A stretch of DNA of 64,000 nt from Bacteroidaceae bacterium (GCA_017481745.1 JAFUOV010000012.1:96767-160766); one strand, 5' to 3'; counted from the stretch's first letter, positions 6,239 through 25,591 are shown. Notes: a model not told the origin generated them from the sequence alone. Numbers and translations are program-made.

Positions 6239-6254
6239 GCGATAACAACAATTT

Positions 6255-6800: not shown

Positions 6801-7068
6801 ATACCTTTATTTTTAAAATTAAATGGCAGTGGCGCATACCCCACCAATTTACATTAAATTTATCTTCAGATAGCAAATATAGCAATTGCTTATTGTCGAA
6901 CAAAATATGAGCCGATTTTTTTCATTTTTTAGCACAACAATTTGCTCAAATATGCTCGATAAATACCTCCTGAGAGGGCGGGCGACTCACTCCGATGCAA
7001 AATGAGCAAAAAGATATTTTTTTATAAATAAAAGATGTGATATATTCTTTTTGCGAAAAACTTTTTTG

Positions 7069-7076
7069 TAACTTTG
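7069..7076 (+). promoter_or_regulatory. -7 promoter box (TAACTTTG) of the nuo/atp cluster
   Basis: TAnnTTTG 80 nt upstream of nuoA, with a TTTG at 7050-7053. Confidence 0.65.
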
Positions 7077-7156
7077 CGTGGATTTATGTTTGGAGGGAAT
7101 CCCTTTTTGAACTATATCTGAAAAATACAAAACAACAACAAAGGATAAATAGCAAT

Positions 7157-7507
7157 ATGAATTCAGCACTATTTGTAACCATCTTGGTTACAGCTATTGT
7201 AATGGTAGGAGCAGCTCTGCTTATAGCTTGGTTGCTTGCACCACGCTCATTCAATCCACAAAAAGGCGAAGCTTACGAGTGCGGTATTCCTACACGTGGT
7301 ACTTCATGGATGCAATTCAAGGCAGGTTACTATCTCTTTGCCATCCTCTATTTAATGTTCGATGTCGAGACAGTATTCTTGTTCCCTTGGGCAGTCATAC
7401 TGCGTGATGTAGGTGCGGCAGGTCTTGTCAGCATCGCTGTGTTTATGGTAATTCTTGTATTAGGTCTTGTGTACGCATGGAAGAAAGGAGCGTTGGAATG
7501 GAAGTAA
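7157..7507 (+). CDS. nuoA: NADH:quinone oxidoreductase subunit A
   Basis: K.EAYECG, YLMFDVETVFLFPWA, YAWKKGALEW; three TM helices; ATG at 7157. Confidence 0.96.
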   Translation: MNSALFVTILVTAIVMVGAALLIAWLLAPRSFNPQKGEAYECGIPTRGTSWMQFKAGYYLFAILYLMFDVETVFLFPWAVILRDVGAAGLVSIAVFMVILVLGLVYAWKKGALEWK

Positions 7508-8097
7508 AGAAATCGAAAATAAAAGCTATGCCTTACGAGGACTTCAAGGATAATGAGTCTCTCGAGCAAATGGTAGAAGAGCTTAATGCCGCCGGCGTAA
7601 ATGTTGTTGTAGGTGTTTTTGACGACGTAATCAACTGGGGACGTTCCAACTCGGTATGGCCCTTGGCTTTTGCAACAAGCTGCTGTGGTATTGAGTTTAT
7701 GTCGGTTGCCGCAGCACGTCATGATATGGCGCGTTTCGGATTTGAGGTAACTCGTAACTCTCCTCGTCAAGCCGACTTCTTGATGGTTGCCGGTACGATT
7801 GTGCATCGTATGGCACCTATCCTTAAGCGCGTTTACGACCAGTTGGCAGAGCCTAAATATGTAATTGCAACCGGTGCTTGCGCTGTGTCGGGTGGTCCGT
7901 TCCGTAGTTCATATCACACAGTACCCGGTATCGACCAAATACTCCCCGTCGATGTATATGTGCCCGGCTGTCCTCCACGTCCCGAGGCTATGCTGTATGG
8001 TATGATGCAATTGCAACGCAAAATCAAAGTGGAAAACTTCTTTGGTGGCGTAAACCGCAAACAAAAGAGAGAAGAATTCTTCAAAAACAAAGAGTAA
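7498..8097 (+). CDS. nuoB: NADH:quinone oxidoreductase subunit B
   Basis: TSCCGIEF, SPRQAD, GAC, VYVPGCPPRPEA (N2 cluster ligands); overlaps the nuoA stop. Confidence 0.96.
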   Translation: MEVKKSKIKAMPYEDFKDNESLEQMVEELNAAGVNVVVGVFDDVINWGRSNSVWPLAFATSCCGIEFMSVAAARHDMARFGFEVTRNSPRQADFLMVAGTIVHRMAPILKRVYDQLAEPKYVIATGACAVSGGPFRSSYHTVPGIDQILPVDVYVPGCPPRPEAMLYGMMQLQRKIKVENFFGGVNRKQKREEFFKNKE

Positions 8098-8147
8098 AAA
8101 TATTCTCTCAATAGCAATACGAAAACATACACCTTATATATAAATAT

Positions 8148-9776
8148 ATGGCAAGCATTCAAGAAAAAATAAGCAAGCTGATACCCGAAGCCACCTTTGC
8201 CGAGGCGCAAGTGCTACAAATATCGGTTCCTGATGCACAATGGCACAAGCTTGCAAAAGCCCTATATGAAGATACTGAAATGCCGTTTGACTACCTTACA
8301 ACCATCGTTGGTATGGATTGGGGCGAGACACTCGGCTGTTTATATTACCTCGAATCGACCAAGACCGGCAATCGCTTGTGTGTGAGAGTTGAAACATCGG
8401 ATCGTGAAAATCCTATGTTGCACTCGGTGAGCGACTTGTGGGAGTCGGCCAACTTCTACGAGCGTGAAGTGTACGACTTCTTTGGTATCGTCTTTATCAA
8501 CCACCCCGATATGCGCCGTCTCTTCTTGCGCCGCGATTGGGTAGGACATCCCCTTCGTAAAGACTACGATGCAAGCCCCGAGTTGAACCCTGTTCGCTTG
8601 CACCACGAAGAGGCTTACGACACCACCGTCTCGTATGTAGAGCAACCCGATGGCTCAATCAAAAAGACCGAGCCGGTGATATTTGCTCCCGACGATTATG
8701 TGGTGAATATAGGTCCTCAACACCCCTCAACTCACGGTGTATTGCGCTTGCGTTGCTCGCTCGATGGTGAGTTTATCAAGAAAGTAGATCCCTACTGCGG
8801 ATACATTCACCGCGGTATCGAAAAGATGAGCGAATCGCTCACATATCCTCAAACCCTCCACTTTACCGACCGTCTTGACTATCTTTCGGCAATGCAAAAT
8901 CGCCATGCCTTGTGTATGTGTATCGAAGATGCTTTGCAAGTAGAGATACCCGAGCGTGCTCAATATATACGTACAATCAACGACGAGTTGATGCGTATAT
9001 CGTCGCACTTGCTCTTCTGGGGTACTTTCTGCAACGACTTGGGTAGTACAACAGCACTTATCTACGGTTTCCGCGAGCGTGAGATGGTACTCGATATTCT
9101 TGAGGAAACAACCGGTGCACGTATGTCATTCCACTACAATAAGATAGGTGGTGTGATGAATGATATTCACCCCGATTATCAACGCAAAATCAAAGAGTTC
9201 TGCAAGATAATGCCCGAGCGCCTTAAAGAATATCACCGTTTCTTTACAGGCAACGTCATCGCACAAGGTCGTATGCACGGCATCAGTGTTATCTCGAAAG
9301 AGCGTTGTATTGCACACTCTATGACAGGTCCTTCAGGTCGCGCTTCGGGCTGGGCTTGCGACGTGCGTAAACGCATACCCTATGCACTATACGATAAGGT
9401 AGAGTTTGACGAGGTATTGCGCACCGAGGGCGATATCTATGCACGTTACATGGTGCGTATGGACGAGATTTTGCAATCTATTCGCATCATTGAGCAGCTT
9501 GTAGACAATATTCCCGAAGGTCCTGTAGCCGAGAAGATGAAACCCATCATCAAGTTGCCCGAAGGTCAATGGTTCCGCCAAGTAGAGGCAAGCCGTGGAG
9601 CATTCGGTGTATTCATCGAAAGTCGTGGCGACAAGTATCCCTATCGCTTGAAGTTCAATTCGCCGGGTATGATGCTCGTGGCATCGCTCGACGAGGTGTG
9701 TCGCGGTGGTAAGATTGCCGACTTGATAGCCGGTGGTGGCTCGCTCGACTATGTGATACCCGATATTGACCGATAA
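8148..9776 (+). CDS. nuoCD: NADH:quinone oxidoreductase fused subunit C/D
   Basis: NuoC motifs EREVYDFFGI and GHPLRKD; NuoD motifs NIGPQHPSTHGVLRL, GYIHRGIEK, RLDY and terminal DIDR. No NiFe CxxC pairs. Confidence 0.96.
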   Translation: MASIQEKISKLIPEATFAEAQVLQISVPDAQWHKLAKALYEDTEMPFDYLTTIVGMDWGETLGCLYYLESTKTGNRLCVRVETSDRENPMLHSVSDLWESANFYEREVYDFFGIVFINHPDMRRLFLRRDWVGHPLRKDYDASPELNPVRLHHEEAYDTTVSYVEQPDGSIKKTEPVIFAPDDYVVNIGPQHPSTHGVLRLRCSLDGEFIKKVDPYCGYIHRGIEKMSESLTYPQTLHFTDRLDYLSAMQNRHALCMCIEDALQVEIPERAQYIRTINDELMRISSHLLFWGTFCNDLGSTTALIYGFREREMVLDILEETTGARMSFHYNKIGGVMNDIHPDYQRKIKEFCKIMPERLKEYHRFFTGNVIAQGRMHGISVISKERCIAHSMTGPSGRASGWACDVRKRIPYALYDKVEFDEVLRTEGDIYARYMVRMDEILQSIRIIEQLVDNIPEGPVAEKMKPIIKLPEGQWFRQVEASRGAFGVFIESRGDKYPYRLKFNSPGMMLVASLDEVCRGGKIADLIAGGGSLDYVIPDIDR

Positions 9777-9807
9777 AATATGTAAATCCTAAATAAACGA
9801 AAACACC

Positions 9808-10884
9808 ATGTACGATTTTTCGAATATTACAATGTGGATACATAACCTCTTGATGAGCTTCCTGCCCGAGTGGGCTACATTGCTCATAGAGTTTGTGCTT
9901 ATAGGCGTAGCCATCTTGGCTCTATATTGCATACTTGCATTGTTCCTCATCTACTTTGAACGTAGAGTTGCCGGTGCATTCCAATGCCGCCTCGGTCCCA
10001 ATCGTGTAGGACCTTTTGGTATTTTCCAAAGTATTGCCGATATGCTCAAAATCCTTATCAAAGAGCTTATCTATCTGAAGAATATCGACCACTTCTTGTT
10101 CAACCTTGCACCTTTCTTTGTATTGGTGGCTTCGATGCTTACATTTGCCTGTCTGCCTTGGGGTAACGGCTTGCAAGTCATCGACTATAACGTAGGCGTA
10201 TTCTTCATGTTGGCAGTATCGGGCTTGGGTATCTTGGGTGTACTCCTTGCCGGATGGTCTTCAAACAGCAAATACACCGTTATCGGAGCCATGCGTGCCG
10301 GTGCGCAAATGATTAGTTACGAGTTGTCTATCGGATTGTCGATACTCACTATCGTTGCCATTTCGGGCAGCATGTCGGTAACCGGTATTGTTGAGGCTCA
10401 ACACGATGCGTGGTTCCTCTTCAAAGGACACATCCCTGCGCTCATTGCCTTCATCATCTATCTTGTAGCCGGTTCTGCCGAAATCAACCGCGGACCCTTC
10501 GATATGGCAGAGGCTGAGAGTGAACTCACCGCCGGTTATCACACCGAGTATTCGGGTATACACTTTGGTTTCTACTACTTGGCAGAGTACCTCAACCTCT
10601 TTATCATGGGAGGTATCGCCACAACCCTCTTCTTGGGCGGATGGATGCCTTTGCACATATCCGGTTGGGATAGCTTCAATGCCATTATGGACTATATACC
10701 CTCGATTGTATGGTTCTTGGGTAAGAGTATCATAGTTGTATGGATAAGCATGTGGTTCCGCTGGACGTTCCCCCGTCTGCGTATCGACCAACTGCTCAAC
10801 CTCGAGTGGAAATATCTCCTCCCCATAAGCCTTGTTAACCTCGCTATCATGAGTGTTGTAGTAGCTTTGGGTTGGCATTTCTAA
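9808..10884 (+). CDS. nuoH: NADH:quinone oxidoreductase subunit H
   Basis: ERRV...[50 protein letters not shown]. Confidence 0.96.
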
Positions 10885-10927
10885 TATTGTGAACGAAAAA
10901 AAATAAAAAGAATAAATAACCTTATAA

Positions 10928-12454
<1,527 letters not shown>

Positions 12455-12462
12455 TAACTGTC

Positions 12463-12696
12463 ATGAAACTCGAAATCATATCTTCGGAAACCACACTCTT
12501 CAGCGGCGAGGTAACATCGGTAACGCTACCCGGTACAAAAGGTTCGTTCACCGTACTCAACAACCACGCATCGTTGGTATCGACCCTGCAAAAAGGCAAG
12601 ATAGAGTATGTAATTGGCAACGAGCGCCATTCCGTAGAAACGAGTGGCGGATTTGTTGACGTAGACAACAATCGCATAGCGGTATGTATCTATTAA
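12463..12696 (+). CDS. atpC: F1Fo ATP synthase subunit epsilon (beta-sandwich only, 77 aa)
   Basis: V.LPG..G.F.VL.NHA.L motif and GGFV; lacks the C-terminal helices. Confidence 0.93.
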   Translation: MKLEIISSETTLFSGEVTSVTLPGTKGSFTVLNNHASLVSTLQKGKIEYVIGNERHSVETSGGFVDVDNNRIAVCIY

Positions 12697-12724
12697 TAAG
12701 TCCCGACAAAAGAAGCACAAATCA

Positions 12725-13798
12725 ATGAAAAAGCACTCGATACTTATCATAAGCATTACCCTCATCGTTCTTGCAGCGGCAGCAAGCATAGCCTTGTTTG
12801 ACCACTCGCATCACGACGAGAATGCCAAGTTTGATGCCAAAGAGACAATCTTTGACCACTTGGTAGACCACTACAGCTGGGAAGTGCCTTTTTCGCACAG
12901 CCATAAAATACCCCTGCCCATAATCGTACAAGACTATAAGGGCGGCTGGCACTGTTTTATGTCAAACAAGATAGAGCACGGCGACACCTACGACGGGTTC
13001 TATATTGACCCAAGCGAAGCACACCATGGCAAGGTAGTGGGCGTAAATGACAAGGGTGAGGTATATCGTCCGCTCGACATCTCTATTACCAAGAATGTCG
13101 CAGCTTTGTTTATTACCGTCATCGTTGTATGCCTGTGTATCTTCCCCCTTGTGCGTTGGTACAAAAACAATGGTAAGAAAGCTCCGAGAGGTTTTGTAGG
13201 CGCTATTGAAATGCTCACCTGCATGATTTACGACGACGTTATCAAGTCGATACTCGGTCCCGAGAAAGGTCGTCGTTTTGCACCCTACCTACTCACAGCC
13301 TTCTACTTTATTTTCGTATCGAACCTCATGGGCTTGATGGTAATATTCCCTGCCGGAGCCAACCTTACAGGTAACTTGGCTATCACGCTTGTACTTGCCA
13401 TCTGCACATTCTTGGCAGTAAACATCTTCGGTACCAAAGAGTATTGGAAAGAGATATTCTGGCCCGATGTGCCCATAGCACTCAAATGTCCGCTACCCAT
13501 CATGCCCTTTATCGAGGTGTTTGGTGTATTCACCAAGCCCATTGCATTGATGGTACGTCTGTTTGCCAATATGATGGGAGGACACATGATAGTGCTTGTA
13601 TTGCTGTCGCTCATCTTTATCTTCAAAGAATTGGGCGGTATGCCCGTAGCCGGTGCCACCACCGTATTGTCGGTAGGATTTTCTCTCTTTATGTATATAA
13701 TAGATACTTTGGTGAGCTATATCCAAGCATACGTATTCACCATGTTGTCAACCATATTCATATCGTTGGCACAAGTAGAAGGACATCATCATAAATAA
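12725..13798 (+). CDS. atpB: F1Fo ATP synthase subunit a
   Basis: KPIALMVRLFANM (essential Arg), IQAYVF.ML; Bacteroidota-type N-terminal extension. Confidence 0.95.
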   Translation: MKKHSILIISITLIVLAAAASIALFDHSHHDENAKFDAKETIFDHLVDHYSWEVPFSHSHKIPLPIIVQDYKGGWHCFMSNKIEHGDTYDGFYIDPSEAHHGKVVGVNDKGEVYRPLDISITKNVAALFITVIVVCLCIFPLVRWYKNNGKKAPRGFVGAIEMLTCMIYDDVIKSILGPEKGRRFAPYLLTAFYFIFVSNLMGLMVIFPAGANLTGNLAITLVLAICTFLAVNIFGTKEYWKEIFWPDVPIALKCPLPIMPFIEVFGVFTKPIALMVRLFANMMGGHMIVLVLLSLIFIFKELGGMPVAGATTVLSVGFSLFMYIIDTLVSYIQAYVFTMLSTIFISLAQVEGHHHK

Positions 13799-13848
13799 CA
13801 AAAAAGAAAAAACAAATAAATTATTAACCTTATAAAAAAGAAAACATT

Positions 13849-14094
13849 ATGTTAGCAATGATTTTAACAGCACTTGCACCCCTCGCAGTAATCGGTGCAT
13901 GCGTAGGAGCAGGTATCGCTGCAATCGCAGCAGGTTTAGGTATCGGTCGTATCGGTAGCTCTGCCATGGAAGCAATCGCACGTCAACCCGAAGCAGCCGG
14001 TGACGTACGTGGTAGTATGATTGTAATCGCGGCTCTTATCGAGGGTGTTGCCCTGTTTGCCGTTATCGTTTGTATTCTCGCATTGTTCCTCTAA
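13849..14094 (+). CDS. atpE: F1Fo ATP synthase subunit c (predicted H+-type)
   Basis: GLGIG, ARQPE loop, ion-binding Glu in ALIEGVALF. Confidence 0.97.
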   Translation: MLAMILTALAPLAVIGACVGAGIAAIAAGLGIGRIGSSAMEAIARQPEAAGDVRGSMIVIAALIEGVALFAVIVCILALFL

Positions 14095-14113
14095 TCTCGC
14101 CTAAACGTCCCGT

Positions 14114-14611
14114 ATGGAACTGTTCATGCCCGAAGCAGGGCTTATCTTTTGGATGTTTGTGGTATTTGTGGTATTATTTGCCATACTTGCCAAGTTTGCG
14201 TGGCCCGTCATCACCAAGATGGTCGACGAGCGTGCTACTCTCATTGACAAAGGTGTAGAGTATGCCGAGGCCGCAAAAGCAAGCCTTGAAGACTCTGAAA
14301 GCCAAGCCCGCGCTATTCTCGCTGAAGCAGGACGTCAACAAATGGAAATCATTCAAGAAGCTGCACAGATGAAGGCTCAAATCATCGAAGAAGCCAAGAA
14401 AGCTGCTGCTGCCGAAGCCAAGAAACTTGTTGATGCTGCTGCCATCAGTATCGAGCAATCGCGCAAAGAAGCCGAGCTACAGTTCCGCCAAGAAGTGAGC
14501 CAATTCGCCCTCACAATAGCCGAAAATATTATTCGCAAAGAACTCGCGGGCGACAAAGCTCAGGCGGAAATGGTAGAGCAATTATTGAACGAACTTGAAC
14601 ATAAAAACTAA
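14114..14611 (+). CDS. atpF: F1Fo ATP synthase subunit b
   Basis: N-terminal TM helix, KFAWP.I...ER, then an Ala/Glu-rich coiled coil. Confidence 0.94.
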   Translation: MELFMPEAGLIFWMFVVFVVLFAILAKFAWPVITKMVDERATLIDKGVEYAEAAKASLEDSESQARAILAEAGRQQMEIIQEAAQMKAQIIEEAKKAAAAEAKKLVDAAAISIEQSRKEAELQFRQEVSQFALTIAENIIRKELAGDKAQAEMVEQLLNELEHKN

Positions 14612-14616
14612 GAACC

Positions 14617-15156
14617 ATGAACGAAGGATTAATTCCTCGCAGATACGCTAAAGCCTTGTACAAATATGCACAAGAGCAGCAATGCACCCAACAAGTCTAT
14701 GCCGACTCGCAACGACTTGAAGAGGCATTTGCCACACACCCTGCATTGACCAAAGCGCTGGGCAATCCTGCCTTGAGCGCTACCGAGAAGGAACAGTTGC
14801 TTGTTGCAGCTGCCGGAACCGATGCAGGTAAAGCTATCCTTCGGTTCATCAACTTGGTAATTCTCAACCACCGCGAGACATACTTCCGAGCCGCAATGCT
14901 CGACTTTCAAGAGGTTTATCGCAAAGAAAACAACATAGCTCGTGTAACGATAACCACCGCTACAACTATGAACGATGATATTGTTGCACGCATTAAGAAC
15001 TTGTTGAAAACGCAACTCGACAAAGAGCTTGAGTTTGTTTACGTAACAGACCCCGCTCTCATCGGTGGTTTCATACTGCGCGTTGAGTCGATGCAACTTG
15101 ATGCATCTATTCAAAACGAGCTTAAAAAATTGCGCGTAAAATTACTAAACAAATAA
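14617..15156 (+). CDS. atpH: F1Fo ATP synthase subunit delta
   Basis: [19 protein letters not shown] motif. Confidence 0.94.
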
Positions 15157-15161
15157 TTTTT

Positions 15162-16739
15162 ATGATAAAACCAAACGAGATATCGGATATACTCAAAAGT
15201 AAGCTCGAAGAAGTTGACAAGCAAGCCAACTTTGAAGAGATAGGTACCGTACTCGAGGTAGGTGACGGTGTAGCACACGTATACGGTCTTGACAACGTAA
15301 AGTCGAGCGAGCTCGTAGAGTTTGAAAACGGTGTACGCGGTGTAGCCATGAACCTCGAGGAGAGCAACGTGGGTGTTATCCTTCTTAACGATATCGAAAA
15401 GGTTACCGAGAATATGACTGTACGCCGCACCGGCGACATCGCCTCTATACCGGTAGGAGAGGGGCTGTTGGGTCGTGTTATCAACACATTGGGCGACCCC
15501 ATCGACGGTGCAGGTCCTATTACAGGCAATACGGTTTTGATGCCCCTCGACCGCAAGGCTCCCGGTGTTATCTTCCGTCAGCCCGTAAAAGAGCCGCTTC
15601 AGACCGGTATCAAGGCTATTGATGCCATGGTGCCCATAGGTCGCGGACAACGTGAGCTCATCATTGGTGACCGTCAAGTAGGAAAAACAACCATTGCTAT
15701 AGATACTATCATCAACCAACGTGAAAACTTCAAGAACGGCAAGCCGCTCTATTGTATCTACGTTGCGATAGGTCAAAAGGCATCTTCGGTAGCAGCATTG
15801 GTAAATACATTGCGCGAACATGGCGCTATGGACTATACCATCGTTTTGGCAGCCAACGCATCAGACTCGGCAGCCATGCGCTACTATGCCCCCATGGCAG
15901 GTGCTGCCATTGGCGAATACTTCCGCGACTCGGGTCGCCACGCACTCGTTATCTACGACGACTTGTCGAAACAAGCTGTATCTTACCGCGAAATTTCGCT
16001 CATTCTGCGTCGTCCTTCGGGTCGTGAGGCATATCCCGGCGACATCTTCTACCTCCACTCGCGCCTCTTGGAGCGTTCGGCAAAGATTATTGACAACGAC
16101 AAGGTTGCCGCTTCGATGAACGACCTGCCCGAGGTGTTGAAGCCTATGGTAAAAGGTGGTGGTTCGCTCACAGCATTGCCCATTATCGAGACACAAGCAG
16201 GTGACGTTTCGGCATATATCCCCACCAACGTAATCTCTATTACCGATGGTCAGATATTCCTCGAGACTAAACTCTTCAACCAAGGTGTGCGCCCCGCTAT
16301 CAACGTAGGTATCTCGGTATCGCGTGTGGGTGGTAGTGCACAGCTCAAGGCGATGAAAAAGATTGCCGGTACACTCAAAATCGACCAAGCACAATTCCGT
16401 GAGCTTGAGTCGTTTACCCAATTTGGTGGCGATATCGACCCCGTAACCGCAATGGTTATTGACAAAGGTCGTAAAAACGAGCGCGTGCTCATCCAACCGC
16501 AATATAGCCCCGTTCCCGTTGAGGAAGAGATTGCTATTATCTATTGCGGTACACAAGGATTGCTCTCACCCGTTCCCGCCGAGAAAGTGGCCGAATTTGA
16601 GAAATTGTTCCTGCAAATACTTCACGCCAAGCATCAAGCCGACGTACTCGACGAGCTCAAGAAAGGTGTTCTCAACGACGAGATCGCTGCCAAGCTCACC
16701 GAGGTGGCAAAAGAAGTTGCTAACCGATTTAAGGCATAA
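15162..16739 (+). CDS. atpA: F1Fo ATP synthase subunit alpha
   Basis: [44 protein letters not shown]. Confidence 0.98.
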
Positions 16740-16746
16740 TTAAGAT

Positions 16747-17622
16747 ATGGCATCCATCCGCGAACTGAAAGGCAGAATAGGCTCGGTATCGACATCCGAG
16801 AAGATAACCGGCGCGATGAAAATGATTTCATCTGCCAAAATGCACAAAGCAATGCAAGCATTGCAACGTGTAGAGCCGTTCCGCCACCAGATACAATCAA
16901 CTATCGACAACCTATTGGCTGCCGATAGCCAATACACCTCGCCTCTCACCCAAGAGCGTCCCGTCAAGCAGATGGGTATCGTGTTGTTGGGTAGCGACGA
17001 AGGATTGTGCGGTGCTTTCAACATGATGCTATTCAAACAAATGCTCGAAACCATCAATCGGGTAAAAGAAGAGTCGAATGATGAAGTGTCATTTGTCATC
17101 TATCCCATTGGCAAGAAAGTCGTATCGGCCGCCAAGAAACTTGCGCTCCCCCATGTGAGAGTTGTCGAGTTGCCCTATATGACAGCAAAGAGCAATGGTG
17201 AGAAGATAAAACAAATGAGCGACGAACTCATGCAAGCGTTTCTCGGCGAAGAGCTGGATCGCATAGAAATTGTATTTATGGAGTTTCTCAGCATGGGACG
17301 TCAACGACTTGCCAACCGCACCATGTTGCCGGTCATAGCCGAAGCATCCGACAATGAGGCAGCGTGCAAACCCTACCTCTTTGAGCCGAATGTTGCAACT
17401 ATATTCGATACGGTACTGCCGCTGTCGGTATTGGCATCATTGCAAGAGAGCATCAGCCAAAATCGTGCCTCGGAACAAGCAGCGCGCGTTCTTGCCATGC
17501 AGTCGGCCAACGACAATGCCAAGAAATTGCGTGAAGAATTGCAACTTGAATACAACAAGTTACGTCAACAAAGTATCACAAACGAGCTGCTCGATATTTT
17601 GGGCGGTAAAGTTGACGGATAA
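16747..17622 (+). CDS. atpG: F1Fo ATP synthase subunit gamma
   Basis: KITGAMKMIS, SDEGLCGAFN, SEQAARV.AM..ANDNA, YNKLRQQSITNELLDI. Confidence 0.96.
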   Translation: MASIRELKGRIGSVSTSEKITGAMKMISSAKMHKAMQALQRVEPFRHQIQSTIDNLLAADSQYTSPLTQERPVKQMGIVLLGSDEGLCGAFNMMLFKQMLETINRVKEESNDEVSFVIYPIGKKVVSAAKKLALPHVRVVELPYMTAKSNGEKIKQMSDELMQAFLGEELDRIEIVFMEFLSMGRQRLANRTMLPVIAEASDNEAACKPYLFEPNVATIFDTVLPLSVLASLQESISQNRASEQAARVLAMQSANDNAKKLREELQLEYNKLRQQSITNELLDILGGKVDG

Positions 17623-17632
17623 ACCAAACCTT

Positions 17633-17676
17633 TCGACGAGAGGACTTGGCATCTTGATGCCAAGTCTGCTCGCCGA
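17633..17676 (+). promoter_or_regulatory. Strong stem-loop without U-tract in the atpG-nuoI spacer
   Basis: Perfect inverted repeat GACTTGGCATC-TT-GATGCCAAGTC (17643-17666), extended by imperfect TCGACGAGAG/TGCTCGCCGA pairing; followed by GAGATAATAA, not poly-T. Confidence 0.7.
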
Positions 17677-17723
17677 GAGATAATAACTATAACGAACTGA
17701 TAGGAATACTATCGAACAGACCT

Positions 17724-18212
17724 ATGGGAAGTAACAAGAACTATTTCACATCGTTATTTAAGGGCATCGGGAGCTTGCTCACCGGTATGAGTATTACGGG
17801 TAAATATTTTTTCAGCCGTAAAATTACACAACAGTATCCCGAAAATCGTAAAACTCTCGAAATCCCCGAGCGTTTTCGTGCCACCCTGTCGCTTGTATAT
17901 GATGAGGAAGGCAACCACAAGTGTATAGCTTGCGGTATATGCCAAAACAACTGCCCCAACAATACAATCGAAATTGTTGCCAAAAAAATTGAAACAGAAG
18001 ATGGTAAAACCAAGAGAGTACTCGATCGCTATATGTACGACTTGGGCTGCTGTACATTCTGTCAACTGTGCGTGAGCTCATGCCCGCACAACGCCATTAA
18101 GTTCACAAACGAGTTTGAACAAGCTGTGTTTACAAGAGAAAAACTTGTAAAACAACTCAACAACCGTCCTGAACCGGTGCGTGTAGAACCCAAAGAAGAA
18201 AAATCAGAATAA
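17724..18212 (+). CDS. nuoI: NADH:quinone oxidoreductase subunit I
   Basis: TQQYPE; two 4Fe-4S motifs, CIACGICQNNCP and CTFCQLCVSSCP. Confidence 0.95.
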   Translation: MGSNKNYFTSLFKGIGSLLTGMSITGKYFFSRKITQQYPENRKTLEIPERFRATLSLVYDEEGNHKCIACGICQNNCPNNTIEIVAKKIETEDGKTKRVLDRYMYDLGCCTFCQLCVSSCPHNAIKFTNEFEQAVFTREKLVKQLNNRPEPVRVEPKEEKSE

Positions 18213-18220
18213 TACAATAT

Positions 18221-18739
18221 ATGGAACTCTTACCTTTAGCTCAACAAGTTCTTTTCTACTTGCTTGCAATTGTGATTGTGGTATGCTCGATATTGGCAGT
18301 AACCACACGTCGCATACTTCGAGCTGCTACGTATCTGCTCTTCGTCCTTCTGTCGACGGCAGGTATATACTTCATGCTCGATTATACATTCCTCGGCTCG
18401 GTGCAAATAGCTGTGTATGCCGGTGGTATTCTGGTTCTGTTTGTCTTTTCGATATTGCTCACCAGCCATCCCGGCGAGAGCTGCGAAAAATCGAGCTTGA
18501 CCAAACGAATACTTGGTATTGTCGCTGCTCTTACAGGAGCTGCCGTATGTGCTTATGCCCTCTTTACCTACCAATGGCCTGCTGTCGACCTCATTGAGAC
18601 CGGCGAGCATCCCATCAAGGCTTTGGGTCATGCACTTATCGGCATGGACAAGTTTCAATATCTGCTTCCCTTCGAGGCAGTGAGTGTTTTACTATTGGCA
18701 TGTATCATCGGAGCCATTTTGATAGCTCGCAAACGCTAA
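18221..18739 (+). CDS. nuoJ: NADH:quinone oxidoreductase subunit J
   Basis: QIAVYAGGILVLFVF, YLLPFEA.SVLLL. Confidence 0.95.
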   Translation: MELLPLAQQVLFYLLAIVIVVCSILAVTTRRILRAATYLLFVLLSTAGIYFMLDYTFLGSVQIAVYAGGILVLFVFSILLTSHPGESCEKSSLTKRILGIVAALTGAAVCAYALFTYQWPAVDLIETGEHPIKALGHALIGMDKFQYLLPFEAVSVLLLACIIGAILIARKR

Positions 18740-18752
18740 ATAATAGAAGATT

Positions 18753-19064
18753 ATGGAAATACCAATGATATATTACATCGTATTGAGTCTTGTGATGTTC
18801 TTTGCCGGTGTTTATGGCTTCATCACTCGCAAAAATATGCTTATGATGCTCATCTCGATAGAGTTGATGCTCAATGCCGTTGACATAAACTTTGCCGTAT
18901 TCAATAGGTTTTTGTTCCCCGGACAGATGGAGGGCATGGTATTCGCTATCTTTGCCATTGCCATTGCAGCTGCCGAGACGGCTATTGCTATTGCTATTAT
19001 TATTAACATTTTCCGTCATATTCGCAACATCGACGCGGATAATCTCGACGATATGAAATATTAA
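18753..19064 (+). CDS. nuoK: NADH:quinone oxidoreductase subunit K
   Basis: SIELMLNA, AAAETAIA. Confidence 0.95.
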   Translation: MEIPMIYYIVLSLVMFFAGVYGFITRKNMLMMLISIELMLNAVDINFAVFNRFLFPGQMEGMVFAIFAIAIAAAETAIAIAIIINIFRHIRNIDADNLDDMKY

Positions 19065-19072
19065 GAACCGCT

Positions 19073-20986
19073 ATGGAATATACAGTTTTCATTTTACTAC
19101 TGCCGTTGGCTATGTTCTTGCTATTGGGATTGCTCGATAGCAAGTTGAAGCCCCGCGTAGCGGGTATATTGGGCACATTAGGCATGACCGTGTGCACGGC
19201 ATTGGCATATTTTACTGCCTATCAATTCTTCACACAACCTCGCAATGCCGAGGGTGTGATACCTTCGGTTACCCCTTACAACTACGAGTGGTTGCGCTTT
19301 ACCGAGCATCTGCACATCGACTTGGGTATCTACCTTGATCCTATCTCGGTAATGATGCTTGTTGTCATCACCACCGTATCGCTGATGGTGCACATCTATA
19401 GCCTTGGCTATATGCATGGCGAGAAGGGTTTCCAACGTTACTATGCCTTCCTCTCGTTGTTCAGCATGTCTATGTTGGGATTGGTTGTTGCAACCAACAT
19501 CTTCCAAATGTATATCTTCTGGGAGCTTGTGGGTGTTTCGTCATATCTGCTCATTGGTTTCTATTACACCAAGCCCGCAGCTATTGCAGCATCTAAAAAG
19601 GCATTTATCGTAACACGTTTTGCCGACCTCGGCTTCCTGATTGGTATCCTCATATTGTCGTTCTTTACCAAGACATTCGACTTTGCCACTCTCACAGCTA
19701 CTCCTACTGCCATCATCACCGAAACAGCCGGTGCTACATTCCTCGGTTGCTCGGTAGCTTCTTGGGCTTTGGCTTTGATATTTATGGGTGGTGCCGGTAA
19801 ATCGGCAATGTTCCCCTTGCACATCTGGTTGCCCGATGCCATGGAAGGTCCTACTCCTGTATCGGCACTTATCCACGCCGCAACAATGGTTGTTGCCGGT
19901 GTATACTTGGTAGCTCGTCTTTTCCCGGTATATTGTGTAACTCCCGAGGTGCTCGAACTTATCACCACTGTGGGAGCTATCACAGCGCTGTATGCCGCGA
20001 TTGTGGCTTGCGTGCAGACCGACATAAAGCGAGTGCTTGCCTTCTCTACCATCTCGCAGATAGCCTTTATGATTGTTGCATTGGGTGTTGCCAACGATAC
20101 CGACTTGCACGAGGGTCTTGGCTATATGGCTTCGATGTTCCACTTGTTTACACACGCGATGTTCAAAGCGTTGCTCTTCTTGGGTGCTGGTGCTATTATT
20201 CACGCCGTACACTCAAATGAGATGAGCGAAATGGGTGGCTTGCGCAAGTATATGCCCATTACGCATATTACATTCCTCATTGCCTGCTTGGCAATCGCCG
20301 GTATACCTCCCTTCTCGGGCTTCTTCAGTAAAGACGAAATTCTTACAGCTGTGATGCACAAGAGCACATTCTGGGGTATATGGATGACAGTAGTTGCCGG
20401 TTTGACAGCATTCTATATGTTCCGCCTCTACTTCCGCATCTTCTGGTGGAAGAACACCGATTGTAGCCACCACACTCCGCACGAGGCTCCTCTCACTATG
20501 ACTTTGCCTCTTATCTTCTTGGCATTGGTTACTTGCGTGGCAGGCTTTATCCCATTCGGCGAGTTGGTAAGTGTAAATGGTCAACCCTATCACATCCACC
20601 TCGATTGGAGCGTAGCAACCACCAGCATCATTGTTGCCGTTTGTGCTATCTCGTTGGCGGCATGGTTGTACCTGAAAGAGAACAAGAAACCTACTGCAAT
20701 GGCAGATGCCACTCGCACACTGCACACTGCTGCCTACCGTCGTTTCTACATAGATGAGATATATCTGTTTGTAACACACAAAATCATATTCAAGTGTATC
20801 TGTGCACCTATTGCATGGTTCGACCGCCACATCATCGACGGCACTATGGATATGTTTGCCAACGTTACTCAATGGGTATCGGCTCGTATCAAGGGCTTGC
20901 AATCGGGTTATATACAAAGCTATGTATGGATACTCCTTATGGGCACATTGCTTATTGCAGCCATAACAATATGTTGTCTCTTATAA
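19073..20986 (+). CDS. nuoL: NADH:quinone oxidoreductase subunit L
   Basis: WELVG..SYLLIGF, GKSAMFPLHIWLPDAMEGPTPVSALIHAATMV, HAMFKALLFL. Confidence 0.96.
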   Translation: MEYTVFILLLPLAMFLLLGLLDSKLKPRVAGILGTLGMTVCTALAYFTAYQFFTQPRNAEGVIPSVTPYNYEWLRFTEHLHIDLGIYLDPISVMMLVVITTVSLMVHIYSLGYMHGEKGFQRYYAFLSLFSMSMLGLVVATNIFQMYIFWELVGVSSYLLIGFYYTKPAAIAASKKAFIVTRFADLGFLIGILILSFFTKTFDFATLTATPTAIITETAGATFLGCSVASWALALIFMGGAGKSAMFPLHIWLPDAMEGPTPVSALIHAATMVVAGVYLVARLFPVYCVTPEVLELITTVGAITALYAAIVACVQTDIKRVLAFSTISQIAFMIVALGVANDTDLHEGLGYMASMFHLFTHAMFKALLFLGAGAIIHAVHSNEMSEMGGLRKYMPITHITFLIACLAIAGIPPFSGFFSKDEILTAVMHKSTFWGIWMTVVAGLTAFYMFRLYFRIFWWKNTDCSHHTPHEAPLTMTLPLIFLALVTCVAGFIPFGELVSVNGQPYHIHLDWSVATTSIIVAVCAISLAAWLYLKENKKPTAMADATRTLHTAAYRRFYIDEIYLFVTHKIIFKCICAPIAWFDRHIIDGTMDMFANVTQWVSARIKGLQSGYIQSYVWILLMGTLLIAAITICCLL

Positions 20987-21015
20987 AGTTGAAGAACCAA
21001 TAAAACGAAGAAACT

Positions 21016-22509
21016 ATGAATTTTCTATCATTATTTGTGCTTATTCCTATCTTGATGATGGCAGGTCTTGCCATAGCAAGAGATATGAAACAAATACGCA
21101 CGGTAGCAGTCGCGTTTTCGACCCTTCAACTGGGACTTGCTATCTATACTGTATTGAAATACTTGGCAGAGCGTGCCGCCGGTAACGCCGAGGAGATGCT
21201 CTTCCAAGCCTCGACTATGTGGTACGAGCCCCTCAATATCCACTATGCAGTGGGTGTTGACGGTATATCGGTAACAATGTTGTTGCTCACCGCCATTATC
21301 GTATTTGCCGGTGTATTTGCATCGTGGAAAATCGAACCCCTGTCGAAGGAATTTTTCTTGTGGCTCACACTGCTCTCTATCGGTGTGTACGGCTTCTTTA
21401 TCTCGATAGACTTGTTCACCATGTTCATGTTCTACGAGGTTGCCCTCATTCCTATGTATCTGCTCATTGGTGTATGGGGTAGTGGCAAGAAGAACTATTC
21501 GGCGATGAAACTTACCCTGATGTTGATGGGTGGCTCGGCATTGCTCATGTTGGGTATCTTGGGTATCTACTACCACTCGGCACCCGAAGGCGCTCCGCTC
21601 ACCATGAACATCCTTGAGATAGCCGGCAATAATGCTATACCTCACGATTGGCAATACTTCCTCTTCCCCTTGACATTCGTCGGTTTCGGTATCTTGGGCG
21701 CTATGTTCCCCTTCCATACATGGTCGCCCGATGGTCATGCTTCGGCACCTACTGCCGTTTCGATGCTCCACGCCGGTGTGTTGATGAAGTTGGGTGGTTA
21801 CGGATGTTTCCGCGTGGCTATCTATCTCATGCCTTTCGCTGCACAAGAGTTGTCTTGGATATTCCTTATCCTCACCGGTATCAGTGTGGTATATGGTGCG
21901 TTCTCGGCTTGTGTACAGACCGACTTGAAGTACATCAACGCTTACTCATCGGTAAGCCACTGTGGTCTTGTACTCTTTGCAATCCTCATGCTCAATAACA
22001 CTGCAATGACAGGTGCTGTGATGCAAATGCTCTCGCATGGTCTTATGACAGCCTTGTTCTTTGCCCTCATTGGTATGATATATGGTCGTACCCACACCCG
22101 CGACATACGCGAGATGGGTGGCTTGATGCAGATTATGCCTTTCCTCTCGGTTTGCTACGTGATTGCCGGTCTTGCTTCACTCGGTTTGCCCGGTCTTAGC
22201 GGTTTCGTTGCCGAGATGACAATCTTTGTAGGTTCGTTCCAACACACCGATATGTTCCACCGCGTATTCACCATCGTTGCTTGCTGCTCGATAGTAATCA
22301 CAGCGGTTTACATCTTGCGTGTAGTAGGTAAGTTGCTCTATGGTGCTGTGCAAAACGAGCATCACCGTGAGCTCACCGATGCTACATGGTGGGAGCGCCT
22401 CTCTGCTGTAACACTCATCGTTTGTGTTGCTGCCATTGGTTGCTTCCCCGGTTGGATATCAAACCTCATCAGTAACAGCCTTAACGCTATTGTAGAACGT
22501 CTATCATAA
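21016..22509 (+). CDS. nuoM: NADH:quinone oxidoreductase subunit M
   Basis: YE..LIPMY.LIG.WG, PFHTWSPDGHA.APT, LMKLGGYG, AYSSVSH, GLPGLSGFVAE. Confidence 0.96.
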   Translation: MNFLSLFVLIPILMMAGLAIARDMKQIRTVAVAFSTLQLGLAIYTVLKYLAERAAGNAEEMLFQASTMWYEPLNIHYAVGVDGISVTMLLLTAIIVFAGVFASWKIEPLSKEFFLWLTLLSIGVYGFFISIDLFTMFMFYEVALIPMYLLIGVWGSGKKNYSAMKLTLMLMGGSALLMLGILGIYYHSAPEGAPLTMNILEIAGNNAIPHDWQYFLFPLTFVGFGILGAMFPFHTWSPDGHASAPTAVSMLHAGVLMKLGGYGCFRVAIYLMPFAAQELSWIFLILTGISVVYGAFSACVQTDLKYINAYSSVSHCGLVLFAILMLNNTAMTGAVMQMLSHGLMTALFFALIGMIYGRTHTRDIREMGGLMQIMPFLSVCYVIAGLASLGLPGLSGFVAEMTIFVGSFQHTDMFHRVFTIVACCSIVITAVYILRVVGKLLYGAVQNEHHRELTDATWWERLSAVTLIVCVAAIGCFPGWISNLISNSLNAIVERLS

Positions 22510-22520
22510 ATACCGCAGAT

Positions 22521-23969
22521 ATGGATTTTTCTCAATATTCTTTGATATGGGAGTATATGCAACCCGAGTTGTTGCTGTTGGTAGCCACAATACTCCTTTT
22601 CTTTGTAGACCTCTTTGCATCGCCCCGTTTCCTCGATAAGTGGTTCTCGGGTATCGCTTGCGTACTGCTTGCTGCAGTTACTGCAATAAGCTGCATACCC
22701 GGTGGCGAGACACATACTCTATTTGGAGGCATGTTTATCAGCACACCTATGACTACAGCCATGAAGTTGGTGCTCAACATCGGTACTATACTTGTGTTGT
22801 TGCAAGCCCATTCGTGGGTCAACAGCGAGGCTTGTAAGGTGCGTCGTGGTGAGTTCTATGAGTTGATGTTCTTTACCTTGTTTGGTATGTACCTGATGAT
22901 TTCGTCGGGACACTTCCTCATTTTCTTTATCGGACTCGAAACTGCTTCGTTGCCTATCGCTGCATTGGTAGCCTTCAACAAGCAAGGTGGCGACTCGTAT
23001 GAGTCGGGTGCCAAGTACCTCTTCAATGCCGTATTCTCATCGGCAATATTCTTGATGGGTATCTCGTTTATGTATGCCATGTCGGGCTCGCTCTACTTTG
23101 AGGATATAGCCCTCAATGCTGCCAACAATACAGCTTTGTTTGTCGTTGCTTTGGCATTCATTATCTCGGGTATCGGATTTAAGTTGTCGCTCGTGCCTTT
23201 CCACTTGTGGACAGCCGACGTATATCAAGGTGGTCCTACTGCCGTTACAGCCTATCTCTCGGTTATCTCGAAGGGCGCTGCTGCATTTGCATTCTTGTGG
23301 GTTTTGTTCAAGACTTTCAGCCCCTCGCCCGAGTTGTGGCAGGGTATACTCTACGTGCTCATTATCCTCACCATTACATTGGGTAACTTGTTTGCCATCC
23401 GTCAGAAAGACTTGAAACGCTTCCTTGCCTTCTCGTCAATCTCGCAAGCCGGATATATCATGCTCGGTGTGATGGCAAATAGCGCACAAGGTCTTACTGC
23501 TCTTGTTTACTATATACTTGTTTACATCTTCTCAAACCTGGCAGCCTTTGGTGTGATAGCCTCTATTGAGAACAAGACAGGCAAAGTAAGCATGGACGAC
23601 TACAACGGATTGTACCAAACCAACCCCAAGCTGAGCCTCGCCATGATGCTCGCCATGTTCTCGTTGGCAGGTATCCCGCCGTTTGCCGGTTTCTTCAGCA
23701 AGTTCTTTATCTTTGCTTCGGCAGTAAACAGCGGATACTACATCCTTGTACTCATTGCATTGCTCAACACAATCATCTCGTTGTTCTACTATCTGTTGGT
23801 TGTGAAAGCGATGTTTATCAACCCCAATGACAATCCTATCGAAACTGTTAAGACCAATTGTTACGGTCGTACCGGACTTGTTATCTGTGTAGCAGGTATC
23901 TTGGTACTTGGTATAGCAAGTTGTGTATACGGCTACTTGTCGGGTTTGAGCCTTACAGTAGGTATCTGA
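22521..23969 (+). CDS. nuoN: NADH:quinone oxidoreductase subunit N
   Basis: FKLSLVPFHLWTADVYQG.PT, KRFLAFSSISQAGY, SLAGIPPFAGF..KF. Confidence 0.96.
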   Translation: MDFSQYSLIWEYMQPELLLLVATILLFFVDLFASPRFLDKWFSGIACVLLAAVTAISCIPGGETHTLFGGMFISTPMTTAMKLVLNIGTILVLLQAHSWVNSEACKVRRGEFYELMFFTLFGMYLMISSGHFLIFFIGLETASLPIAALVAFNKQGGDSYESGAKYLFNAVFSSAIFLMGISFMYAMSGSLYFEDIALNAANNTALFVVALAFIISGIGFKLSLVPFHLWTADVYQGGPTAVTAYLSVISKGAAAFAFLWVLFKTFSPSPELWQGILYVLIILTITLGNLFAIRQKDLKRFLAFSSISQAGYIMLGVMANSAQGLTALVYYILVYIFSNLAAFGVIASIENKTGKVSMDDYNGLYQTNPKLSLAMMLAMFSLAGIPPFAGFFSKFFIFASAVNSGYYILVLIALLNTIISLFYYLLVVKAMFINPNDNPIETVKTNCYGRTGLVICVAGILVLGIASCVYGYLSGLSLTVGI

Positions 23970-23988
23970 TAAATATTACATAATACTG

Positions 23989-24025
23989 CAAATGGCGAGC
24001 TTTTCGAGGCTCGCCATTTGTTTTT
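23989..24025 (+). terminator. Intrinsic terminator closing the nuo/atp cluster
   Basis: Stem CAAATGGCGAGC/GCTCGCCATTTG followed by TTTTT. Confidence 0.85.
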
Positions 24026-24068
24026 GGCTGTTGGCTTAATACTCCTGTATCATCCCTGCAAATCGACT

Positions 24069-24105
24069 AAAAATAAGGCTGAAACCTTTGCGAGATTTCA
24101 GCCTT
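24069..24105 (-). terminator. Intrinsic terminator of pepD
   Basis: Stem AAGGCTGAAA/TTTCAGCCTT with an A-run on the + strand (U-tract on -). Confidence 0.7.
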
Positions 24106-24127
24106 GTGTTATCGGAAATGTCGATTG

Positions 24128-25591
24128 TTATTTCTTCATATCGGCAACCTTCTCGAGGATGCGGAGCAGGTGCAACCAGAATTTCTCAACAGCAGGAATG
24201 TGCATGCGCTCGTCGGGAGAGTGAACGTCGCGCAATGTAGGACCAAACGAAATCATATCCAAGTGAGGATATTTGCTGAGGAACAAACCGCACTCAAGAC
24301 CTGCGTGGATAGCAAGAATTTCGGGTGTTACGTTGAACAACTCTTCGTATGCCTCAACAGCGATATCTTTGATAGCCGATTGCATGTTGGGTTTCCATCC
24401 GGGATAACCCTCGCCGTGCATGGGCACTGCACCTGCCATGGCAAAGAGTGCTTCTATTTGGTTGGCGATATCGTGTTTCTCGCTCTCTACCGAGCTGCGT
24501 TGGCTGGTAGCTACCACGATAGTATTGCCCTCGCGCATTTTTACCGATGCAAGGTTGGTCGATGTTTGTACCAAACCGGACAATTCGCGGCTCATGGCAA
24601 TCACACCGTGAGGTGCTGCGTAGAGAGCCGATATGAGGTTGTGTGCTGTCTTGCAGTCGATGCAAGTGGCAGGGGTGTCGGCAGTCTCCATACCCGAGCC
24701 TGTAAGGGCATCGACGCCTTTGAGTTCTTCTTCAACAGTAGCAATGTGGCAGTTGAAGTCGACACGCAACGACTCTTTGTCTTTCATAGGAACACCTACA
24801 ACAGCCATAGCCTCGCGAGGAATGGCATTGCGCAAGTTACCGCCGTCGATAGTAGCCAATTTTACATCATATTTCTTCATGGCGTTCCACAAGAAACGAG
24901 CCAATATCTTGTTGGCATTGCCACGACCCAAGTGGATGTCGCCACCCGAGTGTCCGCCGTTAAGACCCTTAATGCGCAATGTAGCGTAGTAGTAGTCTTG
25001 AGGTGCAACCTCTTCGCTATATGTAAATGTAGAAGTAGTGTCGATACCGCCGGCGCAACCGATGAAGATTTGAGCATCGTCTTCCGAGTCGAGGTTGAGC
25101 AGAATATCGCCGTTGATGAGCGAACCGTCGAGGTTGTTGGCACCGGTAAGACCGGTCTCTTCGTCTACGGTAAAGAGCGCTTGCAAGCGACCATGTTTTG
25201 CCTCGGGATTGATGAGTACTGCCATAGCAGCAGCCATACCTATACCATTGTCGGCACCGAGGGTAGTACCACGTGCGCGTACCCACTCACCGTCGATATA
25301 TGTTTGGATGGGGTCGTTTTCAAAGTCAAGCTCTACATCGCTGTTCTTCTCACAAACCATATCCATGTGGGCTTGCAAAATTACAGTAGGAGCGTCTTCG
25401 CAACCCGGAGTTGCGGGAACTGTCATTACCACGTTGCCTATTTCGTCGGTGGCAACTTCAAGGTTGTGCTTGTGTGCGAAGTCTAAAAGATAAGCGCGAA
25501 TTTTTTCCTCTTTTTTAGAAGGACGCGGCACTTGCGTAATGGCATCGAAAATTTCCCATACCAACGCGGGTTTCAGGTCTTTTACTTTCAT
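24128..25591 (-). CDS. pepD: Aminoacyl-histidine dipeptidase (M20C)
   Basis: LQAHMDMV, TTLGADNGIG, TVDEETGL, NLDSED, GGHSG.DI, IHAGLECG, HSPDE. Confidence 0.95.
   Translation of the reverse strand: MKVKDLKPALVWEIFDAITQVPRPSKKEEKIRAYLLDFAHKHNLEVATDEIGNVVMTVPATPGCEDAPTVILQAHMDMVCEKNSDVELDFENDPIQTYIDGEWVRARGTTLGADNGIGMAAAMAVLINPEAKHGRLQALFTVDEETGLTGANNLDGSLINGDILLNLDSEDDAQIFIGCAGGIDTTSTFTYSEEVAPQDYYYATLRIKGLNGGHSGGDIHLGRGNANKILARFLWNAMKKYDVKLATIDGGNLRNAIPREAMAVVGVPMKDKESLRVDFNCHIATVEEELKGVDALTGSGMETADTPATCIDCKTAHNLISALYAAPHGVIAMSRELSGLVQTSTNLASVKMREGNTIVVATSQRSSVESEKHDIANQIEALFAMAGAVPMHGEGYPGWKPNMQSAIKDIAVEAYEELFNVTPEILAIHAGLECGLFLSKYPHLDMISFGPTLRDVHSPDERMHIPAVEKFWLHLLRILEKVADMKK

Follow-up and report, generated by a model that had tools for sequence, protein, structure and literature searches.

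The window analysed here, one strand of 64,000 nucleotides from Bacteroidaceae bacterium (GCA_017481745.1; JAFUOV010000012.1:96767–160766), carries eighteen uninterrupted open reading frames (ORFs) on its plus strand between positions 7157 and 23969. Their order is nuoA-B-CD-H, atpD-C-B-E-F-H-A-G, nuoI-J-K-L-M-N, such that the genes for an F1Fo ATP synthase lie between nuoH and nuoI of an operon encoding a complex I-like enzyme. The best NCBIfam match of every one of the eighteen products is a Nuo or F1Fo subunit family; all eight atp products, together with those of nuoB, nuoD, nuoH, nuoK, nuoL, nuoM and nuoN, pass the curated cut-offs, and nuoA, nuoI, nuoJ and the NuoC half of nuoCD fall below theirs with a Nuo family still as best match. 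The segments are joined by an A-rich spacer of 61 nt between nuoH and atpD (10885–10945; junction 1) and a spacer of 101 nt between atpG and nuoI (17623–17723; junction 2), and the other gaps are of 50 nt or less. A preliminary description, made from the sequence alone, had given the same gene order, the single strand, the intact reading frames and the two spacer lengths; the ORF calls and NCBIfam matches confirm the former and the coordinates the latter.

The upstream nuo segment comprises nuoA (7157–7507; NF005839, E 2.7e-29, 101.9 bits, cut-off 163 not reached), nuoB (7477–8097; NF011391, 373.7 bits, cut-off 283), a fused nuoC-nuoD (8148–9776) and nuoH (9808–10884; NF004741, 320.6 bits, cut-off 305). 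Within the fused product, residues 26–142 match NuoC (TIGR01961, 109.1 bits, cut-off 122.45) and residues 184–542 match NuoD (NF004739, 423.4 bits, cut-off 360). For nuoA, the ORF finder gave an alternative GTG start at 7037, which would overlap the promoter motifs described below. The downstream segment consists of nuoI (17724–18212; TIGR01971, 109.6 bits, slightly below the cut-off of 113.05), nuoJ (18221–18739; best match NF005168, E 4.3e-26, 91.9 bits, below the cut-off of 154), nuoK (18753–19064; NF004320, 95.7 bits, cut-off 57), nuoL (19073–20986; NF005141, 629 bits, cut-off 556), nuoM (21016–22509; TIGR01972, 428 bits, cut-off 263.8) and nuoN (22521–23969; TIGR01770, 396.6 bits, cut-off 332.6). 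All eleven subunits (A, B, C, D, H, I, J, K, L, M and N) of the complex I-like enzyme are thus encoded, and no gene for NuoE, NuoF or NuoG is present at the locus; a genome-wide search for NuoF gave nothing above the cut-off (best 42.9 bits against 558.65, in a genome 90.9% complete), NuoE and NuoG not having been searched for beyond the locus.

The enclosed F1Fo operon is also complete, with the alpha, beta, gamma, delta, epsilon, a, b and c subunits each above the NCBIfam equivalog cut-off: atpD (beta; 10946–12454; TIGR01039, 762.6 bits, cut-off 462.85), the ATG of which at 10946 agrees with the start in all relatives, atpC (epsilon; 12463–12696; TIGR01216, 67.8 bits, cut-off 67.25), atpB (a; 12725–13798; TIGR01131, 113.1 bits, cut-off 102.6), atpE (c; 13849–14094; TIGR01260, 51 bits, cut-off 43.95), atpF (b; 14114–14611; TIGR01144, 85.4 bits, cut-off 65.5), atpH (delta; 14617–15156; NF009964, 161.6 bits, cut-off 154), atpA (alpha; 15162–16739; TIGR00962, 744.2 bits, cut-off 484.45) and atpG (gamma; 16747–17622; TIGR01146, 234.7 bits, cut-off 194.45). 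The product of atpC is a short form of 77 residues which covers only positions 2–76 of the 130 in its model. In all 17 Bacteroidales genomes compared, epsilon is of about 77–84 residues and matches only the N-terminal part of the family model, the C-terminal helical domain being missing across the set. An identity as the ‘alternate’ N-ATPase was considered and rejected, the alt_F1F0 models scoring below their cut-offs (beta, TIGR03305, 564 against 752; alpha, TIGR03324, 557 against 750.5).

The nested layout extends well beyond the window. The window's family is represented by 13 other genomes, all of one genus, and nuoH is followed by atpD in each of the 12 that have the genes; the remaining relative, 77% complete, has neither. 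In ten of these 12, nuoL lies on the same contig 8.16–8.19 kb after nuoH, and in the other two the interval is cut by contig ends. The preliminary description had proposed a survey of gene neighbourhoods across Bacteroidota; one was made within Bacteroidales, using NuoH, AtpD and NuoI as queries against 251 genomes with at most two per family. At the thresholds used, nuoH and nuoI were both detected in 96 genomes. Judged by the coordinates, 14 of these are nested, 80 are canonical, with nuoI 12–366 nt after nuoH, and two could not be judged. Thirteen of the nested genomes have a nuoH–nuoI gap of 6.7–7.3 kb with atpD directly after nuoH; in the fourteenth (G240) a contig end interrupts the locus, with atpD seen after nuoH. 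The nested genomes fall under seven GTDB family codes (f1, which is that of the window, f21, f28, f63, f80, f105 and f135), and all sampled genomes of those seven families are nested.

Of 18 loci taken from named public records, 15 are nested, the canonical ones being ‘Candidatus Odoribacter’ and two actinomycete loci. Wherever a nested locus reaches both junctions the insertion point is between nuoH and nuoI; four loci (L003, L004, L014 and L021) show junction 1 only. Across 19 nested loci the nuoH–atpD spacer is 22–83 nt long. One of these public loci (L014), labelled Muribaculaceae, has the same order up to a contig end in atpF and is nearest to a genome of family code f21 (G033; 83% identity in NuoH and 91% in AtpD), and on the basis of this label and similarity f21 is probably Muribaculaceae. 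Three other nested loci (L010–L012) have 68–69% NuoH identity and share 97–99% identity among themselves in NuoH, AtpD and NuoCD; they are labelled Agathobacter rectalis, Bacteroides fragilis and Bacteroidaceae bacterium, and at least two of these labels are likely to be binning or labelling errors.

Phylogenies of the pump, the synthase and a species marker each recover the nested genomes as a single group. In the RpoB tree they form one clade of 11 rows (Shimodaira–Hasegawa-like approximate likelihood ratio test support of 100; one nested genome, G117, lacks an rpoB match), with f21 as sister to the window's family. The concatenated NuoCD-H-L-M tree likewise has one nested clade (12 rows, support 100), as does the concatenated AtpD-A-B-G tree obtained with a careful search (11 rows, support 99/98). 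Since the nested genomes are one clade in all three trees, the event took place once and was then inherited, and since the branching order within the clade is identical in the Nuo and Atp trees, the pump and synthase genes have travelled together since that event. The three trees indicate that the window's locus and that of Muribaculaceae go back to the same ancestral event. In each of the seven closest non-nested genomes in which a whole atp cluster was compared, atpDCBEFHAG is contiguous; the block was therefore probably inserted whole.

Neither junction retains a recognisable scar. The longest word common to both is of 7 nt, a length that was reached in 220 of 300 shuffles, so there is no target-site duplication, and with gaps of at most 101 nt there is no room for a transposase. 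A mobile-element scar was rejected on the same grounds, there being no direct repeat beyond chance; overlapping minus-strand ORFs were not part of the family searches. The flanks of free-standing atp operons in six non-nested genomes were mapped to G000 without a former atp site being found; the former home is not identifiable because the flanks vary between outgroups and have homologues spread across seven contigs. The preliminary description had taken the event to be an old one, with neither transposase nor target-site duplication at the junctions, and had suggested a comparison of the atp and nuo phylogenies with the species tree. The single origin, the vertical inheritance across at least seven family codes, the gap lengths and the shared-word test bear out both statements, and the comparison, once made, recovers the nested clade with RpoB, Nuo and Atp alike.

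The atp genes have a more complicated history in one respect. In the Atp tree, the sister group of the nested clade's synthase genes comes from a sub-group within a different family, f131 (7 rows, 100/100), whereas in the RpoB and Nuo trees the f131 genome G143 (L020) stands far from the nested clade, and an approximately unbiased test rejects a clade of the nested genomes plus G143 (p about 1e-83). From this conflict it follows that the atp block crossed between lineages at least once. The stem common to the nested and f131-block atp genes is long, at 0.29 changes per column, compared with 0.04–0.11 for most other internal branches and 0.069 for the matching Nuo stem, which suggests a burst of ATP synthase change that roughly coincided with the rearrangement or the transfer. 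In the f131 sub-group the block-type atp operon stands alone beside a canonical nuo operon. A sample of 41 f131 genomes gave 30 AtpD matches, 15 of them at 79–82% identity to the window and 15 at 68–70%, and 11 genomes with no match at E ≤ 1e-120; in all three examples of the 68–70% type that were examined, atpDC lies apart from the rest of the cluster (compared loci L068–L073 and L074–L076).

The assembly itself is supported by independent data at one junction and by other genomes at both. A separate DNA run (X6) yielded one contig of 7918 nt, spanning 9748–17666, an interval that takes in nuoH, the first junction and all of the atp genes; its contigs break at 17666/17699, within the second spacer. 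None of the contigs listed, whether from RNA or from DNA, bridges junction 2 (ends at 17560, 17585 and 17666; starts at 17642 and 17699), although it is continuous in all 17 other nested loci compared. The check on read support suggested in the preliminary description therefore holds for junction 1, while junction 2 of the window stays unbridged in the contigs listed. The same gene order is found in at least 26 other independently assembled genomes (12 of the genus, 11 further ones from the order sample, and loci L010–L014).

Signals for the start and end of transcription lie at the two ends of the gene row. Two matches to TAnnTTTG, a −7 motif for which the Bacteroidetes consensus was taken from PMC7366714, are located on the plus strand at 7069–7076 and 7085–7092, 88 and 72 nt before the nuoA ATG; they are likely, as judged from the motif and its position, to be the main promoter of the gene row. 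The motif is kept 85–89 nt before nuoA in all ten genus genomes examined; among these the window is the only one with a copy ahead of atpD, located within nuoH, and none has one ahead of nuoI, and over 18 nested loci it precedes atpD in four and nuoI in one. A sigma-70 scan returned 19 sites against 30.2 expected and is uninformative for Bacteroidetes. Directly after nuoN, at 23988–24021 on the plus strand, is a hairpin of 15 pairs (seven of them G-C) followed by a T run, resembling an intrinsic terminator. It is the strongest site in a scan of 6200–24600, which found 18 sites against 16.5 expected from shuffles, the others being weak and mostly inside coding sequence. The promoter box before nuoA and the want of a U-tailed terminator ahead of the end of nuoN, both noted in the preliminary description, thus stand, the former reinforced by its conservation. 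The only Rfam hit lies in the terminator region (23986–24110; 29.7 bits against a gathering score of 97) and was set aside as being at chance level.

Spacer length also bears on whether the row is read through. The nuoH–atpD spacer is only 22, 28 and 31 nt long in three lineages and the atpG–nuoI spacer only 17 nt in one, and spacers as short as these 17–31 nt (in G040, G092 and L013) could not accommodate both a promoter and a leader. Contigs from RNA libraries of one study cross junction 1 (10675–11427 in X15 and 10147–11427 in X17). It is plausible, from the arrangement of these signals, that all eighteen genes are on one transcript. An A-rich leader word, AACCTTATAA, occurs at about 10915–10930 and again at about 13825–13840, some 20–30 nt before the atpD and atpE starts, and is conserved in most genus relatives; it may provide a translation-initiation context for beta and c, the two most abundant subunits.

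The second spacer contains a structure that the preliminary description had missed. Directly after atpG, at 17630–17679 on the plus strand, lies an intercistronic hairpin with no U-tract, which the terminator scan misses because there is no T run. The folding energy of the 101-nt spacer is −37.6 kcal/mol (z = −8.2), a value that none of 200 shuffles attained. In all nine close genus sequences the stem is formed from differing letters, with 10 of the 20 predicted pairs kept via changes on both sides. Over 18 nested loci the hairpin is strong (z of −3.7 or lower) in 12, moderate in one, and absent or weak in five, and neither spacer has an Rfam match. We infer that this hairpin may be an old atp terminator that was carried along with the block and that could now terminate transcription in part, or stabilise the mRNA by hindering 3′ decay or processing. 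A small palindrome is also present in this spacer (17698–17714, plus strand), comprising GATAG, a loop of 4–6 nt and CTATC, and situated 10–26 nt before the nuoI start. It recurs at the corresponding position in L001, L002, L005–L009, L015 and L034; its five pairs are invariant in nine of nine close genus sequences and, being invariant, give no covariation evidence either way, and a similar palindrome is recognisable in G010. Its role could be to bind a protein or, as a hairpin, to control translation.

The window belongs to a draft of 2.15 Mb in 24 contigs, in which a profile search found one copy each of atpD and nuoH, and V-type ATPase A gave no match above the cut-off within the 90.9% recovered; the F1Fo enzyme is the only rotary ATPase found in the genome. 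A 711-residue frame outside the window (G000:C1:25221–25892) gave weak matches to F1 beta and V-type A (35.5 and 25.3 bits) and is probably another RecA-fold ATPase such as Rho. In the c subunit, the residue after the essential Glu is Gly and not Ser or Thr, which in this position are a Na+ signature, and the same is seen in nested and non-nested relatives; a change of ion specificity upon nesting was rejected on this basis. The genome also encodes NqrF and a fumarate reductase/succinate dehydrogenase flavoprotein. Its physiology is likely to be the fumarate respiration usual in Bacteroidales, and the enzymes of the window are expected to work as they do elsewhere in the order: the Nuo-like complex would reduce menaquinone from an electron donor and pump protons, fumarate reductase would serve as the electron sink, and the F1Fo enzyme would interconvert proton-motive force and ATP.

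The best explanation of the locus as a whole, to which we give a probability of roughly 0.8, is one of ordinary parts, one origin, vertical descent, probable co-expression and modulation by the hairpin. An ordinary and complete atpDCBEFHAG block sits between nuoH and nuoI of an ordinary eleven-subunit, NuoEFG-less Bacteroidales operon. The nesting goes back to a single event in an ancestral gut bacterium of the order, whose descendants comprise the window's family, a family that is probably Muribaculaceae and at least five more family codes, and the nested row has been passed down vertically as a unit since then. Transcription would run from the conserved promoter before nuoA through the atp block to the terminator after nuoN, such that the proton pump and the only rotary ATPase are co-expressed, with the hairpin probably modulating flow into nuoI-N and letting the segments reach different steady-state levels.

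Several observations weigh against parts of this account. A T-rich tract follows the hairpin in four nested loci (L010, G092, G075 and G147); such T-tailed hairpins could be real terminators, in which case nuoI-N would need a promoter of their own. The promoter scan sees matches to TAnnTTTG only, other promoter types being invisible to it, and the window has one such match at 10862, inside the 3′ end of nuoH, which is not conserved. The RNA support at junction 1 consists of assembled contigs from two runs of a single study, with no control for DNA carry-over, and a contig over two genes is no proof of one transcript. In a second RNA study (X16) a contig begins at 10884, the last base of nuoH, which is what an internal start or processing site would also give. 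No transcript-derived contig among those listed covers junction 2, a gap which says nothing on transcription because the DNA run breaks there too. Finally, the order sample took at most two genomes per family, and the clade may therefore reach further than it shows and may include secondary losses.

Some of these points fit an operon within an operon, in which the atp genes have their own promoter, located either within the final part of nuoH or in the spacer itself, as well as their own terminator, nuoI-N are served by a third promoter, and adjacency is a neutral relic of rearrangement without regulatory meaning. The stable stem-loop right after atpG in 12–13 of 18 nested loci, its T-rich tail in four of them, its resemblance to an old atp terminator carried along, and the strong hairpin after atpG in two of seven non-nested relatives (G144 and G164) all accord with such a scheme, as do the X16 contig start and the motif at 10862. 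Yet the promoter motif is conserved at neither junction, the shortest spacers could hardly house one, the genus hairpins have no U-tract, unlike the terminator after nuoN, and in five nested loci the hairpin is absent or weak; the X15 and X17 contigs, moreover, cross junction 1. We regard separate units as fairly unlikely. A second alternative concerns the source of the block, which might have been acquired horizontally from elsewhere in Bacteroidales, with insertion between nuoH and nuoI followed by replacement of the native atp operon. The sister relationship to the f131 sub-group on a long shared stem, against the RpoB and Nuo placements, speaks for exchange in one direction or the other, but the contiguous order is also that of the nearest non-nested families. 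Elsewhere in f131 the atp cluster is split and of a very different type, which makes that family a better fit as recipient than as donor, and we consider an acquisition of this kind unlikely.

It might instead be supposed that nesting was favoured by selection for joint assembly of the Nuo-like complex and F1Fo, from one mRNA, into a supercomplex or local proton circuit, possibly reversible, with ATP-driven reverse electron flow. The eighteen-gene order is indeed uninterrupted in each of the 14 nested genomes sampled, which belong to seven family codes, and no second rotary ATPase was found. Against this, there is no extra gene, fusion or linker protein in gaps of at most 101 nt, the subunits match ordinary family models, and gene order can persist merely since breaks in an essential operon are harmful; the free-standing sister atp operon beside a canonical nuo operon in the f131 sub-group means, furthermore, that this atp type need not be nested. 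The parts look ordinary, and nothing in the sequence requires obligate coupling, ATP-driven reverse electron flow or a supercomplex, the last of which we regard as very unlikely. Equally improbable is the stronger form of the idea, whereby one obligatory eighteen-gene transcript, with the hairpin setting the ratio of the parts, leads through co-translation to assembly of pump and F1Fo side by side; if true, co-assembly would explain the unbroken order across at least seven gut Bacteroidales families, and nesting would open a genetic route to the electron donor of the eleven-subunit complex and to the part that this complex plays. That two separate loci were joined by the assembler can be dismissed for practical purposes: the draft state of the genome and the X6 break inside the second spacer would allow it, but the independent contig crosses junction 1, junction 2 is unbroken in 17 other nested loci, and the independent assemblies that share the order have already excluded both misassembly and a recent origin.

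The preferred reading, of a single ancient insertion followed by vertical descent, is not that of a novel arrangement. The preliminary description knew of no earlier account; Ormerod et al. (2016, Microbiome 4:36; PMC4936053), however, describe F-type ATP synthase genes lying within the locus for complex I in ‘Ca. Homeothermaceae’ or S24-7 (Muribaculaceae), and the layout occurs in 14 of the 96 genomes of the order sample that have both nuoH and nuoI. The preliminary description had itself counted a common layout with an earlier account from related families as a refutation, and the survey and the paper bear out both parts of it; novelty is not supported. A full-text literature search, with subscription journals outside its scope, returned no further report. 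Though real, ancient and shared across a clade, the feature has been described before and is therefore ordinary as a discovery; with the arrangement in print since 2016, the value of the present analysis is incremental. What it adds is the extent beyond one family, the single origin, the co-diversification of nuo and atp, the conserved hairpin after atpG, the lack of a conserved internal promoter motif (within the TAnnTTTG scan), and the exchange of the atp block type with a second family. The layout is a clean and rare genomic change that marks an abundant clade of gut Bacteroidales (Muribaculaceae and neighbours), a proton pump and the only rotary ATPase as one genetic unit offer a natural system for co-regulation and co-assembly in anaerobes, and the layout may help to define the role of NuoEFG-less complex I in Bacteroidales.

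Comparison with known systems places the locus close to several of them. The S24-7 locus of PMC4936053 resembles that of the window in having an eleven-subunit complex I without NuoEFG and F-type ATP synthase genes within it; the window differs in belonging to another GTDB family code (f1). The earlier report gives the arrangement one sentence, and its cited passages hold no insertion point, spacers, transcription data or distribution beyond the family. Canonical nuoABCDHIJKLMN operons of Bacteroidales have the same eleven genes in the same order, also without nuoEFG, and their orthologues in non-nested relatives are 46–82% identical; the difference is that 6.8 kb of atp genes, and not 12–366 nt, separate nuoH from nuoI in the window. 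A contiguous beta-epsilon-a-c-b-delta-alpha-gamma unit in Bacteroides and Prevotella is described in PMC5709465, the text of which contains no occurrence of the term ‘nuo’. The atp genes of the window share with the free-standing Bacteroidetes block an identical order of eight genes, the same short epsilon and the same c type, and differ from it in being flanked on both sides by nuo genes, with no intergenic region of their own. In the puf operon of Rhodobacter, and with the REP hairpins of malEFG in Escherichia coli, intercistronic stem-loops set unequal mRNA levels within an operon. The hairpin after atpG is like these stem-loops in lying between co-oriented cistrons, in having no U-tract and in showing compensating changes and, by analogy, it may act in the same way.

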